Under the pieces are notes generated by a model. That model had not been told where the DNA came from and ran no database searches. It saw nothing but the letters and a program-made list of their open reading frames with translations. Both the position numbers and the translations under genes were made by a program. Positions 23,977 through 50,165 of a DNA stretch of 64,000 nucleotides are shown piece after piece. Origin of the DNA: Alphaproteobacteria bacterium (GTDB lineage Bacteria > Pseudomonadota > Alphaproteobacteria > UBA828); NCBI GenBank assembly GCA_963422645.2, contig CAXXVO010000012.1:224001-288000 (forward strand). The letters are read 5' to 3'. The first letter of the stretch is position 1, and each line of letters begins with the position of its first letter.

Positions 23977-24024
23977 ATGTTCGTCCTGGATACAAATGTA
24001 GCATGTTCTTTCCTACTGGCCTAA
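23977..24024 (+). pseudogene. vapC: 5' stub of a FitB/VapC PIN toxin gene, broken at the island junction
   Basis: ATG TTC GTC CTG GAT ACA AAT GTA = MFVLDTNV directly after fitA, then unrelated ACSFLLA*. Confidence 0.8.
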
Positions 24025-24065
24025 CCTACCGTATTCAAATAGCTTTTCTTTTTGCCCAACTGGCC

Positions 24066-24084
24066 CGTAAGCAATTCGGAAGCG
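24066..24084 (-). repeat. 19-bp motif copy 1, putative integrase arm site (CGCTTCCGAATTGCTTACG)
   Basis: 18/19 identical to 28957-28975 and 17/19 to 50077-50095. Confidence 0.7.
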
Positions 24085-24385
24085 GATTGGGGTGAAAGCC
24101 CGCGCGTTTCGGCGCGGCGCTGTCGACGGAAACCGCCTACCACTCCGTTGACCATCGGACCATCGTAACCGCTCGTCGGCCATCCGCTCGTGCGCTGTCC
24201 CGTTCGGCGAACCATCGGTGCGACGCAGACTCCATTGCGGTGCCGCGTTTCGGGATCGTAAACACCGGCCGAGCGCGTGGCCGGCGTACGGACATGCCGG
24301 TGATGTCGGCACGGGGGCCTGTTGCCACCTGCATTGCTGAGCGCACCGCACTTTCACTCCCGGCCGTCGGGTGCGTGGGCTGGCC

Positions 24386-25087
24386 TTACACCCGTCTGAC
24401 GGTCCAGAGTACCTTGCCGACGATGTGCACGTCTTCGGCAAGGCAGGTGTAGTCGGCGTAGTCCGGGTTGGCTGATTTCAGCCGCAGCTCGGGCGCGCCG
24501 CCGGCGTCGTTCACATGCTCGACGCGCTTGACCACGAGCCCGGTTCCGTCGAAGAGCACGAACATCTCGCCGGTGGCGGGGACGCGCCGGGCGGTGTCGA
24601 CGAGCAGCCGGTCGCCTTCGGAGAGCTCGGGCTCCATCGATTCGCCGCGCACCCGCAGCACGCGGATGGCGCCGGGGTTTGCGCCCCCCTCGTAGCGGAT
24701 CATCCCCTCGGGGAGGAACCAGCGCGCGCGCTCGGCGACGAACTCGTCGGCAAGCGCGCCGGGTCCCGCGGACGCCTCGACATCCACCTCCGGGACGGCG
24801 GCGAGCGGCACCGGTCCGGGATCCATCTCCTGTCGGCGCCGCTTCTTCGCTGCCGCCCTCTTGCGCCGGGGCGGGCGCTCGGCGTGGTGCAGATCTCCGG
24901 CCTTGCAGCCAAGCAGGCCGGCGAGCTTTTCCGCGTCCTGGTGCGAGATCACCTTGGGGGTGCCGCGCTCGAGGAAGCCGTGCAGGTAGGAGACGTTGCG
25001 GCCGATGGCGAGCGACACCTCGCGCATGTTCATGCCGCGCCTCCAGAGCAGGTCGCGGATGTTCTGTCGTACCGGGTCGCGTTCCAT
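24386..25087 (-). CDS. CI/LexA-like repressor (HTH + S24 peptidase)
   Basis: N-terminal HTH, ASAGPG cleavage site, VRGESMEP, VVKRV, LKSANPDY. Confidence 0.88.
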   Translation of the reverse strand: MERDPVRQNIRDLLWRRGMNMREVSLAIGRNVSYLHGFLERGTPKVISHQDAEKLAGLLGCKAGDLHHAERPPRRKRAAAKKRRRQEMDPGPVPLAAVPEVDVEASAGPGALADEFVAERARWFLPEGMIRYEGGANPGAIRVLRVRGESMEPELSEGDRLLVDTARRVPATGEMFVLFDGTGLVVKRVEHVNDAGGAPELRLKSANPDYADYTCLAEDVHIVGKVLWTVRRV

Positions 25088-25131
25088 CGCGTTGCCTCGC
25101 TGGGTTGTCGCCGGTTGACGGCGGATGGCAT

Positions 25132-25169
25132 AGCGTATTCACTAACTAACACGATTGTCAACGACAATC
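25132..25169 (-). promoter_or_regulatory. Divergent repressor/cro control region: promoter and operator
   Basis: GATTGTC-AAC-GACAATC palindrome (25153-25169) overlapping TTGACA-N18-TACGCT on the minus strand. Confidence 0.55.
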
Positions 25170-25191
25170 TGCCTGCGTATCTTCCGCCGCC

Positions 25192-47511: not shown

Positions 47512-47674
47512 TGGGCCGTCGCTGTAGGGCTGCGACACGCGAGGCTACAGTGCGAACCGATGCGATTAGAAGCCTCCGGCATCACTGAAGCGCGGAAGAT
47601 CCTGGCGACGCCCCAATTGAGGTCGAGCAAATTCCCGCCAACATTTGAACCTTCAAAGCGCCATCACTATCTCA

Positions 47675-48631
47675 CTATTCGTTGAAATCCGGTTCGTAAT
47701 CTGGTATCTCACTACGGGCTTCCTCTAGCTCATCTTCGGTGTAGAGTTGAAAATACTCCGCTGCTGTGAATACACGTCTTACACTAAACTCTTCCCCCAA
47801 CCCGCTCGCTGTTAGTTTCAGAAGCCCTGAAATATGCAACCCACAAGCTATGCACTCAAAGGATGAGGGACGCATTGCTTGCCTCTGCACAATCTCGTCA
47901 CCTTTTACCTCTGTACTAACTGCTCCTCTAGGGGATCCTTGTAAGAGAGCTCGGGATTCGCAAGCCGGACATTCTACGCGATGACCGGAATGTCTTGTCG
48001 CCCAATTCGTCGACTGCAAGGTCGCTCTTTCTTGATCTTCCATATTTTTTTCTTGCCAAATTTTTCTGTGAGCAAGAATATCCCGTTCTACTGCGGACGC
48101 GACCTCCTTTTCGAATTCGTCAATAATCTCTCGTACCTGTGCCGTATCGGAAACGAATTCTTCAAGTTCTCTATCCATGGACTTCAAAAGAACATCGCAC
48201 GCCTTATAAAAATTTAGTAGCCATATAGATATTGATATGTTCGCGAATGCCAAATCACCAGAATGCAATTCGGCATTTCGTCTTTCGGCGTGCTGGCTGC
48301 AGAAGCCGACAATTTCCTCACTGAAATTTGGAATCAACTCTTTTAGACGCGACAACACGTCTTTGGTTGATAGGGATCTCGGAAAAAATTCAGTTGATGT
48401 TTGTTCTTTTCCCAAAGCGTATGCCAAATTTCGCCAATTTCGATTGTCCGCCAGAAGGACTGGAGATACATGAGCTAGCGCGGCCCGAGCCAAGAGTTCG
48501 AGCGACAATGCAGACCAGAGACCAAATTGCCAGTCGCCCTCGGTGTGTGCTTCCATTCGCTCAACATAGAGTTGCGCCTTTCGAAAAAGCGCTTCCTGCG
48601 ACCAGCGATGAATCGCTATTTTCGTATTCAC
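47675..48631 (-). CDS. Hypothetical protein with HEPN-like RxxxxH motif and C-terminal zinc ribbon
   Basis: LSLELLARA helix, RNAELH, CPAC...CIAC; AT-rich; GTG start overlapping upstream stop. Confidence 0.7.
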   Translation of the reverse strand: MNTKIAIHRWSQEALFRKAQLYVERMEAHTEGDWQFGLWSALSLELLARAALAHVSPVLLADNRNWRNLAYALGKEQTSTEFFPRSLSTKDVLSRLKELIPNFSEEIVGFCSQHAERRNAELHSGDLAFANISISIWLLNFYKACDVLLKSMDRELEEFVSDTAQVREIIDEFEKEVASAVERDILAHRKIWQEKNMEDQERATLQSTNWATRHSGHRVECPACESRALLQGSPRGAVSTEVKGDEIVQRQAMRPSSFECIACGLHISGLLKLTASGLGEEFSVRRVFTAAEYFQLYTEDELEEARSEIPDYEPDFNE

Positions 48632-49329
48632 GCAATTATCTCCGACAAATACACCCGTTCAATCCGTCGGTCAGCATCGTTCAAACTAACTTCACTACGT
48701 CCATGGAGTATGCGCCAGTTGTCTACCAGCAGTGTATCCCCAGGCTCGATCAGCGCCAAGCACTTCGATTGATCCCATGATTTTCTACGCATGGTTTCTG
48801 AAACTCGGTTCGCAGGCTCGTTCATCGGTACCAGGAATAGAGGATCCCATCGAAATCCCGAAACGCCTCCTTGCCGAAACATGAGTGGAAGCAAGGTAAG
48901 GGAAGCATCTCCGCTGGCACGCCTAGGTCGCACCAAGGCTCGCCGTAGCGTCAAAATGTCAAGCACAGACGTAAGGGCTGAGGCCACCAAGAGGCGTGTA
49001 CTCACGGACCGCGAGCCGTTTCGGCACCGCAGCATAAAGTAGCGGGGTGGCTGCGCCCAATGCGCGAGGTCAGTGTGAAGAGGAAACTCAGCAAGGCCGT
49101 ATTCGCCGCTATAGCGATTTGCGAAAGCGTTGGCCGTCGTTTGCGGTTGCAATGTCTGCACAACAGGGATGTCACCCGGTAGCAATGTAGGGATGTCCAC
49201 TACCGTGCCGACTGATTGTCCGATCATGGCTGTTGTTTCTGCTGGTCTCCATCTGCGAAGGAGGACGTAGCCACTTCGGTGCAAGCTGTCCGCATGGTGC
49301 CGTGCGAGCGGCGGAGCTACTACGCCCAT
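48628..49329 (-). CDS. TauD/TfdA-like 2OG-Fe(II) dioxygenase
   Basis: FPLHTDLAH..PPRY..LRC, GDTLLVDNWRILHGR, RRIERVY. Confidence 0.82.
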   Translation of the reverse strand: MGVVAPPLARHHADSLHRSGYVLLRRWRPAETTAMIGQSVGTVVDIPTLLPGDIPVVQTLQPQTTANAFANRYSGEYGLAEFPLHTDLAHWAQPPRYFMLRCRNGSRSVSTRLLVASALTSVLDILTLRRALVRPRRASGDASLTLLPLMFRQGGVSGFRWDPLFLVPMNEPANRVSETMRRKSWDQSKCLALIEPGDTLLVDNWRILHGRSEVSLNDADRRIERVYLSEIIA

Positions 49330-49475
49330 ATGAGTTGACCGTCGATCATGGTTGAAATTGGGGGTCGCGGCTACGGTGCTGAATCAGAGATTGCATGCTG
49401 AGCCTCGGTCCCATCAAGACAACGGCCTTACTGCCGCGGCACCCCACATCTGATCGGTGCTGTTGTTGGCAACGA

Positions 49476-49916
49476 TCATTGTTGCAGTTCGGCGGTCCAT
49501 GGATCGACGGTCTCGACGCCTGTGTTGCGGAACTCGCCGGTGTTCCGTGTCACGACGGCAAGCCCGCGCGTGGCGGCCGCTGCGGCGAGGAAGGCATCCG
49601 GCACATGGTCGTCAAGCGCCTCGCCGCGCCGGCGCTTGTTCTCTATGATCCGCGCGCATGCGCGGGCGTCGGCCAGTGTCCAATCGACGATGCGGTCCTC
49701 GAACAACTCGTCGAGAAGATCGTGGAACCGGTCGGCGAGACCGCGCCGGCGCTTACCCGGAGCCAGACGGCCGATGCCGTCGAGTATCTCCCAGACGGTG
49801 ATGGACGCGAGGCCGAGGCCGTCATCGGCGATCGAGTCGAGATAGGCGGCGACCCGCGGTTCGGGACGCGGCCGCATCATCTCGGAGACGACGTTGGTGT
49901 CTAGAAGAAAACTCAT
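49476..49916 (-). CDS. vapC: FitB/VapC PIN toxin without adjacent antitoxin
   Basis: LDTNVVSE, TVWE, PDAFLAA, VTRN..EF, DPW; first 5 codons AT-rich. Confidence 0.88.
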   Translation of the reverse strand: MSFLLDTNVVSEMMRPRPEPRVAAYLDSIADDGLGLASITVWEILDGIGRLAPGKRRRGLADRFHDLLDELFEDRIVDWTLADARACARIIENKRRRGEALDDHVPDAFLAAAAATRGLAVVTRNTGEFRNTGVETVDPWTAELQQ

Positions 49917-50095
49917 TCTATCCGACACCCTGACCCACTTGCGCCGGAATGCATGGACTTGCGCTCATCTGATATAACTCATTGTAAATAATCTATATTT
50001 CCGATTTCCATGGCGCAGCTTGCCCCTTGCATTCCCGCCTCCGATGCGCTTCAATGCGCCCCGATTTCGAGCCGGTCGCTTTCGGATTGCTTACG
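49900..50095 (+). other. Left end (att-like) of integrase-pair element B
   Basis: TAGAA-N9-TTCTA (49902-49920), IHF-like TAACTCATTG (49975-49984), motif copy 3 (50077-50095); colinear with 28780-28975. Confidence 0.7.
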
Positions 50096-50165
50096 CGAAA
50101 ATACCCGCATCTCGCAGCGATCCGATCCGCGCTCCGGCGACGGCCCCTGTCGCAGGAACCGGGAC

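Follow-up and report, generated by a model that had tools for sequence, protein, structure and literature searches.

Probable nested insertion of two elements with tandem P4/SXT-type integrases in an alphaproteobacterial genome

In a 64,000-nucleotide (nt) stretch of an Alphaproteobacteria bacterium genome (contig CAXXVO010000012.1; G000:C13:224001-288000, hereafter the window; about 67% GC, in the 5.9-Mb genome G000), two pairs of adjacent tyrosine integrase genes accompany three broken genes, two of them encoding VapC toxins with a PIN domain and the third a TrwC relaxase. What kind of element leaves such ends, and how does it choose the gene that it breaks? We put at roughly 75% the probability that the locus holds two nested elements of one family with tandem P4/SXT-type integrases, namely E2, of a type of integrative and conjugative element (ICE) that targets the 5' ends of PIN genes, and E1, which lies within the trwC gene of E2. 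The attP of an E2-type ICE would recombine with the DNA of the N-terminal hydrophobic-hydrophobic-D-T-N-V motif of PIN toxin genes. From the integrase-side end the toxin gene would acquire a new start together with four codons, and vapB and the first five codons would stay at the other end. E1, carrying an Hma-like defence system, would have entered trwC later by the same chemistry, and the ICE would afterward have been rearranged by an inversion, two deletions, and IS21- and IS66-family insertion sequences (IS). The junctions, the empty sites, the class of target gene, the fixed geometry of the ends and the co-evolution of the two integrases are direct observations.

Relatives were collected by keeping the best 80 of 355, with one genome scanned per species. 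The integrase census covers 117 stretches and 201 integrase genes, of which 83 are first of a pair (A), 83 second of a pair (B) and 35 single. A subset of 47 loci, the PIN set, has an IntA at least 66% identical to IntA2, the first integrase of E2, and includes two copies in G000. Protein families were assigned with Pfam, NCBIfam and PADLOC, and tRNA genes with ARAGORN and Rfam. The sister genome G001 holds an intact relative of E2.

The integrase pair

That tandem integrase pairs define a real family of elements, as the initial annotation had proposed, is borne out by 83 loci, each holding precisely one A gene and one B gene. All four integrases of the window carry the catalytic domain PF00589 together with PF13356 (DUF4102; E values from 3e-11 to 3.5e-12), which places them in the IntSXT/P4-type subgroup, defined in the excerpt cited by this N-terminal arm-binding domain (PMC8138268). 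The catalytic residues R-K-H-R-H-Y are intact in 81 of 82 A proteins (one has H changed to Q) and in 80 of 83 B proteins (three are truncated). The two types also form separate lineages. In a tree of the 201 integrases, 80 of the 87 leaves of one clade are A proteins (support 0.98), 83 of the 87 leaves of another are B proteins (0.85), and single integrases fall in a third (27 of 27). Across the 83 loci, pairwise identities among A proteins track those among B proteins (Mantel r = 0.886, reached by 0 of 999 permutations). Because kin share history, this correlation shows co-inheritance and not necessarily physical interaction.

The co-evolution favors both integrases being required, and from these comparisons we regard it as an even bet that the two function jointly as a heteromer. 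Alternatively, one integrase may integrate and excise while the other is redundant or serves in multimer resolution, at a second attachment site or in regulation. Relatives with a single integrase, 27 of them in one clade, make do with that enzyme; identity between A and B is 44-68%, and both have about 390-400 residues and the same domain layout; and half-site asymmetry was not demonstrated, as the dyad symmetry of cores (5.04 versus 4.79 shuffled, and 5.31 versus 4.83) did not separate paired from single-integrase cores. A redundant copy, however, would be expected to decay or vanish, whereas here order and adjacency are kept at 83 loci in several phyla, the two proteins occupy separate and correlated lineages, and both catalytic sets are full. 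We thus consider a non-heteromeric pair unlikely, though it deserves a hearing.

Attachment at PIN toxin genes

The second proposal of the initial annotation, insertion into a conserved coding motif, is supported by the PIN set. Junctions could be read at 35 of its 47 loci. Of these, 26 fall at the D-T-N-V (hhDTNV) codons of genes that point away from the integrase, 8 lie in non-PIN genes, and 1 (L009) is ambiguous; the 12 unreadable cases comprise 3 contig ends, 3 with an IS66-family element directly upstream and 6 others. G000 and 20 further assemblies, from several phyla, account for the 26 PIN-type junctions. Among 30 flanking open reading frames (ORFs) scanned, 20 matched PF01850 and 8 matched PF13470 (counts that may overlap), and the PIN ORF of the window scores 52.6 bits on PF01850 against a cut-off of 23.6. 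An in-frame start lies 12-39 nt upstream in 20 of 21 parsed PIN junctions. The element supplies a new N-terminus to the PIN gene and leaves the target frame open, as a replacement sequence would. Of the 8 non-PIN sites, 5 match at least 6 of 11 informative bases, compared with 4.4% of random window positions. This resemblance to the consensus argues that what is recognized is DNA, over about 12 nt.

The geometry of the ends is fixed. The ends upstream of the two integrase pairs are colinear as first described, with 44 of 55 positions identical between 28921-28975 and 50041-50095 at an offset of 21,120, against a mean of 15.3 (standard deviation 3.6, maximum 30) for 20,000 draws of random window 55-mers. 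A 19-nt motif occurs within them at 28957-28975 (+) and 50077-50095 (+), and again at 24066-24084 (-) and on contig C16, four copies in all. Both gene breaks stand in near-equal register to it (178 nt from 28780 to 28958, and 176 nt from 49902 to 50078), but the short palindromes that had been noted beside the breaks are trivial; the only ones present are 9-10 nt long, GC-rich and 20-40 nt inside the host genes, and were given no weight. A fixed distance between junction and motif had been set beforehand as a check. In 16 of the 26 PIN-type integrase ends a doubled 7-mer (two copies 11 nt apart) lies always 165-176 nt from the junction, and the remaining 10 have a single 7-mer at 166-201 nt. 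Far ends, those distal to the integrases, carry the doubled 7-mer in that orientation too, at 66 nt from their junction. We infer that the 7-mers are candidate arm-type sites.

At the junction itself, host sequence resembles the element mainly at the first two codon positions, a property predicted at the outset and confirmed by a test for 3-nt periodicity. When the host side is compared with the attP-like junction of locus L083, the proportions of identical bases at first, second and third codon positions are 0.95, 0.99 and 0.32 from +1 to +12, and they fall to a background of 0.20-0.30 from +13 to +24. Across the L083 junction runs an open frame of 16 codons that mimics the N-terminus of a PIN protein. 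A special enzyme that reads through wobble positions is not needed to account for this pattern. The same periodicity arises when a 12-nt core overlies coding sequence and third positions in the hosts are about 88% GC, and the mimicry can be read as that of a replacement sequence, or of an attP core of the ordinary kind, on a coding target.

L083 (G001:C2:364242-367430, on a second G001 contig) is also of interest in itself, in that an integrase end and a far end directly abut each other there, near locus position 1498; it may represent either a tandem array or an integrated record of a circular form. In another locus of this genome, L084 (G001:C1:3448192-3451371), the far end adjoins sequence that is not PIN, and of the core no more than the last approximately 12 bases remain; the junction is likely off-target or rearranged, and it helps to set limits to the crossover.

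The two vapC junctions of the window had been read as reciprocal products of one event. The codon strings at 23986-24001 (+) and 49904-49889 (-) do hold five synonymous codons that differ at third positions only, as described, but they do not come from a single gene. For the 23600-23990 locus, upstream flank included, seven orthologues that are intact (79-92% identical; L122-L128) encode a VapC unlike that at 49476-49901, and the nearest paralogue of the PIN gene 49476-49901 is on contig C3, 83% identical up to 49901 and beside a different antitoxin. Since the two junctions belong to different vapC genes, the reconstruction of attB and attP by a swap at a shared GA, with a 2-bp crossover, is unfounded. 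It also assigned attP and attB the wrong way round at the third base of the Asp codon. L083, a natural joint of integrase end and far end, and the far end L082 both have an Asp codon ending in C and not in T, and the orthologue L124 has a T-ending one, so that the T at 23991 can be derived from the host.

The G001 insertion also bears on the crossover. Contig C22 of G000 carries an intact homologue of the locus occupied in G001, and its antitoxin matches the one beside the G001 far end over the whole first half (about 38 residues), so that the two G001 junctions can be paired as one insertion. These junctions, L002 and L082, have in common an 8-bp block of identity across the crossover. The crossover can be placed no more closely than to some 8 bp at the Asp-Thr codons, and any exact cleavage positions within them are putative. 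The earlier model in full, comprising reciprocal vapC junctions, exchange at a 2-bp identity and an enzyme that ignores third codon positions, could claim the five synonymous codons and the periodic likeness to the attP-like junction; it is very unlikely given the two different vapC genes, the C-ending Asp codons, the 8-bp block in G001 and a periodicity that follows from coding targets in hosts rich in GC at third positions.

The adjoining PIN genes are diverse. Flanking PIN ORFs are 13-41% identical to that of the window. Element copies that are 96-99% identical to one another (the window E2, copy C13b, and L002) adjoin PIN genes at most 37% identical. C13b is a copy on the same contig but outside the window (genome 26198-28684), with an integrase end 96.5% identical to that of the window, against 97.5% for the G001 copy, and the PIN gene differs at each. 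Hardly credible is the idea that the PIN genes are element cargo, or that homologous recombination between PIN genes made the junctions without targeted insertion: toxin-antitoxin genes are common on mobile elements and a PIN gene does stand next to the integrase end in every case, but near-identical elements break different PIN genes of two Pfam families at the same codon, intact empty sites contradict a cargo role, and a likeness of 12 nt is too short for RecA-type exchange.

The same attP would serve in Alpha- and Gammaproteobacteria, Binatia, Acidobacteriota (Bryobacterales) and Thermodesulfobacteriota, with IntA proteins 68-84% identical across phyla. Nearly all relatives are metagenome-assembled genomes (MAGs), and many of their names (Poribacteria, Poriferihabitaceae, Binatia, Thalassobaculaceae) are typical of marine sponge symbionts. 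The identity of IntA across phyla points to recent horizontal spread within one habitat.

An ICE remnant and the element within its relaxase gene

The sequences of E2 (23992-28779, and from 49902 onward) are best seen as a decayed, rearranged copy of an 87.5-kb ICE. In G001 the same integrase end (97.5% identical) and far end (99%) lie 87.5 kb apart, the far end adjoining vapB and five vapC codons. Between them are intA and intB (97.5% identical), then TraC, TraG_N, TraH, TraN, TraK, TrbI, a type IV coupling protein (T4CP) of 723 residues and a TrwC of 980 residues. The G001 element thus has an integrase, relaxase, coupling protein and F-type type IV secretion system (T4SS) between two att junctions, the set that defines an ICE, whereas the window copy lacks the T4SS and has truncated T4CP and trwC genes. 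The left part of the window (23726-28779) matches the right part of the G001 ICE in reverse, and the right part (49850-64000) corresponds, in direct orientation, to the left part of that ICE. About 20 kb (the T4SS genes left of the coupling protein) and about 29 kb (at the point of the IS21-family element) are missing relative to G001. Together these matches and gaps indicate that the window ICE was inverted and deleted, and such a rearrangement would explain why the two E2 ends now adjoin two different vapC genes. E1 probably lies at one inversion breakpoint. The IS21-family element at 52370 marks rearrangement and not a simple insertion; the 5.9-Mb genome contains upward of 60 matches to its full length, 99.8-100% identical, the mark of a recent burst of this IS which has rearranged islands.

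E1 would be a second element of the same family, nested in the trwC gene of E2. Its integrase pair is 55% identical to that of E2. An uninterrupted T4CP-trwC paralogue on another contig (C16:220059-223568) is 98.3% identical to 25270-28779; the identity ends exactly at 28779, after which the paralogue runs on for 98 more codons and only 10 of 21 bases match. The cut falls inside the UvrD_C_2 domain, whose Pfam match extends over positions 1-37 of the 52-position profile in the window trwC, versus 1-51 in the intact G001 TrwC. The initial annotation had set the junction string NHKTMYD (28779-28799) against a motif of TrwC-type homologues, roughly (T/N)QK(S/T)(F/L)YV, and the C16 paralogue continues T-Q-K-S-F-Y-V, in agreement with it. 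This paralogue represents the empty site for the E1 insertion. As a target of the family, trwC stands as a single case.

E1 carries genes for a DUF499 ATPase (HmaC), a DUF7680 protein, a metallo-β-lactamase-fold protein, a DUF1156 methylase (HmaB) and a PLD/SNF2 helicase. On Hma models, HmaC scores 8e-99 and HmaB 2e-70; the helicase matches HmaA at 1e-56 and does better with BrxH, PbeA and DrmD. The helix-turn-helix (HTH) protein at 35105-35461 matches an excisionase domain; with the MAD1 model, which describes a component of methylation-associated defence systems, it reaches 78.8 bits where the cut-off is 80. Its role may be in excision, or it may be a MAD1-like part of the defence cargo. A second, partial copy of the HTH/HmaC and HmaB genes, 84-95% identical, lies on contig C16 (15171-18893 and 25869-27177), with no integrase match recorded near those coordinates.

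In addition to the symmetry comparison above, several results weigh against two nested elements of one family. Contamination of the G000 bin is 8.5%, and contig-to-contig comparisons may mix strains; many loci stem from few MAGs and hence are not independent. For E1, the far end and the 3' part of the window trwC are absent from the assembly, which leaves the element bounded at one end only. A DNA search of 49 genomes of the order with the E1 integrase end matched the window's own genome only. Of 7 metagenome loci examined with relatives of IntA1 (58-74% identity), none has a TrwC match, and the closest two (L133 and L134) lack the upstream junction. The HTH_17 gene as a conserved excision factor was matched in E1 only, among 83 tandem loci of which 57 had at least 600 nt downstream of intB. 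Finally, no circle or empty-site joint was found in the short contigs of four sequencing runs, contigs that cannot speak for absence.

Other searches bear on the completeness of the locus. No second arm motif for an E1 far end was found between 29,000 and 49,500, and the 5' part of the window T4CP was not found in the G000 assembly. BLAST of the two far ends against the 80 loci gave no match, the flanks being too short. Six sequencing runs contain at least part of the stretch, five of them at least half of its words; joints in the run contigs have sides of at most 41 letters and look like paralogues. One contig from run X2 covers 47090-49722, and that adjacency is thus not peculiar to this assembly.

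Other targets, known systems and further features

Relatives of the family use other targets, as the initial annotation had anticipated: integrase genes, ssb, and a DNA word common to the genes for asparaginase II and sfsA. L076 (6835-7836) and L094 (177-1264) each hold an insertion in a DUF4102 integrase gene other than their own, within its 5' part and near residue 17-29. In L114 it lies in ssb, at profile position 44, and L096 looks alike by eye. L046-L052 (61-63% identity) have in common a 9-nt word found in asparaginase II (L051) and sfsA (L046), and L086 adjoins an ArsC-like gene. A GGxGGxAC word, which encodes xDxGGT at the start of a gene, precedes thirteen single-integrase loci. Nine further single-integrase loci had been read by eye as tRNA insertions; ARAGORN found 0 genes in the 9 loci and Rfam gave 19.5 bits against a gathering threshold of 29, so that the sites are tRNA-like but unconfirmed.

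Several known systems invite comparison. SXT, a single-integrase element, integrates in prfC. In excerpts of the literature, dusA-specific integrases insert in the 5' end of their target gene and supply a replacement end (PMC4482086), and a replacement sequence in attP is stated as a general rule (PMC10111431). The IntSXT/P4-type and dusA systems resemble ours in combining DUF4102 with a catalytic domain, in inserting within the first codons and in supplying a replacement end. They differ in that they use one integrase and one single-copy housekeeping gene, in contrast to two co-evolving integrases and a diverse, multi-copy PIN family here; because the family is multi-copy, one genome offers many sites. 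The integrase clade of helper-embedded phage-inducible chromosomal island satellites repeatedly targets prophage late genes, according to the excerpted account (PMC10111431). As there described, it is similar in its retargeting to genes of mobile elements and in a doubled, co-oriented motif on both attP arms (at 81 and 132 bp, versus about 170 and 66 nt here), and different in having a single integrase, no replacement sequence, and other hosts and cargo.

Xer proteins act at dif and are not known to act in element integration. XerC and XerD, like IntA and IntB, are two paralogous catalytic tyrosine recombinases, each of which could bind one half-site. They lack an arm-binding domain, however, and on the XerC and XerD NCBIfam models the window integrases score 24-71 bits against cut-offs of 329.6 and 335.15, which no integrase reaches. 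Tn554 has adjacent tyrosine recombinases, TnpA and TnpB, both required, and in its relatives one protein bears a long extension at its N-terminus, in the excerpt cited (PMC3414803). In contrast, both proteins here are of similar length with the same domains, and the excerpt reports no DUF4102 arm domain for Tn554; the distinction is one of described gene and domain layout. RIT elements and GInts likewise form one mobile unit from tyrosine recombinase genes in a row. The former have three recombinase genes (PMC3414803) and the latter three recombinases and a fourth gene, in the excerpted descriptions. The difference from RIT trios claimed at the outset is confirmed by the exact two of the 83 loci.

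A literature search turned up no account of tandem DUF4102 integrase pairs or of a PIN/vapC attachment site, although TIGER/Islander target-gene tables could list them. Insertion at 5' ends with replacement and multi-recombinase units are thus known; a co-evolving pair with arm domains and attachment at a PIN motif did not turn up in the search. If two nested elements of this family are the right reading, one integrase lineage would have solved site choice by a protein-family motif, with dozens of PIN toxins serving as dozens of landing sites. This could explain the spread of ICEs and defence islands among these symbionts, with many copies per genome. The pair would be a second natural two-subunit tyrosine recombinase system besides Xer, with arm-binding domains, and would open a way, itself testable, toward integration sites that can be reprogrammed. 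A defence island in an ICE relaxase gene, and relatives in integrase and ssb genes, would add cases of mobile elements targeting mobile elements. More tentatively, and with the odds against it, IntA and IntB could be an obligate hetero-tetramer reading two unlike half-sites, which would permit easy retargeting to short motifs of multi-copy families (PIN, integrase N-termini, ssb, relaxase) in toxin-antitoxin modules and mobile elements; insertion would then regenerate the toxin gene but cut it from its antitoxin operon, and may disarm or take over the host module for retention of the element.

Table 1. Features in and beside the interval 23977-50165 (window positions)
Feature	Position	Strand	Basis or remark
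Major facilitator superfamily (MFS) gene	upstream of vapB (23727)		
vapB antitoxin, host side of junction J1	23727..23967	+	sequence; intact orthologous vapBC in 7 related genomes; no NCBIfam match
First five codons of interrupted vapC, putative host remnant	23977..23991	+	orthologues run on as full 140-aa VapC
Putative E2 integrase-distal (far) end, AT-rich	23992..24180	+	93-99% identical to three G001 far ends, 78% to one on C16
Far-end doubled 7-mer	24066-24084	-	66 nt from junction
S24 peptidase (LexA/UmuD-like) gene of ICE	24386..25087	-	PF00717; colinear with G001 ICE
T4CP, C-terminal fragment	25192..26115	+	TrwB_AAD_bind profile positions 265-387 only; homology to C16 and G001 from 25270
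trwC relaxase-helicase of ICE, cut at codon 892 in UvrD_C_2; putative E1 target	26106..28779	+	Pfam; empty-site paralogue
Putative E1 integrase-proximal end (attL-type); resumes at 32545-32563 beyond IS	28780..29004	+	doubled 7-mer 28958-28975, 178 nt from junction
IS66-family insertion sequence between E1 arm motif and intA1	29005..32536	+	DDE_Tnp_IS66; terminal repeats; 8-bp target duplication (28997-29004 and 32537-32544); further copies in genome
intA1, tyrosine integrase with DUF4102 arm-binding domain	32564..33757	+	Pfam; A clade
intB1, second tyrosine integrase of E1 pair	33790..34989	+	Pfam; B clade; catalytic residues present
HTH_17/excisionase-family protein	35105..35461	+	Pfam; TIGR01764, 66 bits; MAD1 below cut-off
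E1 cargo, Hma-like defence system	35458..47511	+	Pfam and PADLOC
Low-GC segment (48-59% GC): 318-aa ORF and TauD-like fragment	47675..49329	-	
Second PIN/VapC gene	49476..49913	-	PF01850, E = 9e-14; 3' part 49476-49901 host-derived, first four codons 49902-49913 from E2 (putative origins)
Putative E2 integrase-proximal end (attL-type)	49902..50165	+	doubled 7-mer 50078-50095
intA2	50166..51335	+	Pfam; 99% identical to L002
intB2, ended after residue 343 by IS	51340..52370	+	
IS21-family element	52370..54921	-	genome matches at near-full identity

Two features of the interval fall outside this argument. The 318-aa ORF of the low-GC segment, which sits between the defence genes and the PIN gene, has no Pfam or PADLOC match. 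An IS66-family element lies directly upstream of intA, between arm motif and start codon, in seven separate elements, E1's closest relative among them (window 29005-32536, G000 contig C6 near 339290 and contig C8 near 422155, L027, L039, L045 and L133), which suggests a preferred IS66 target upstream of intA.

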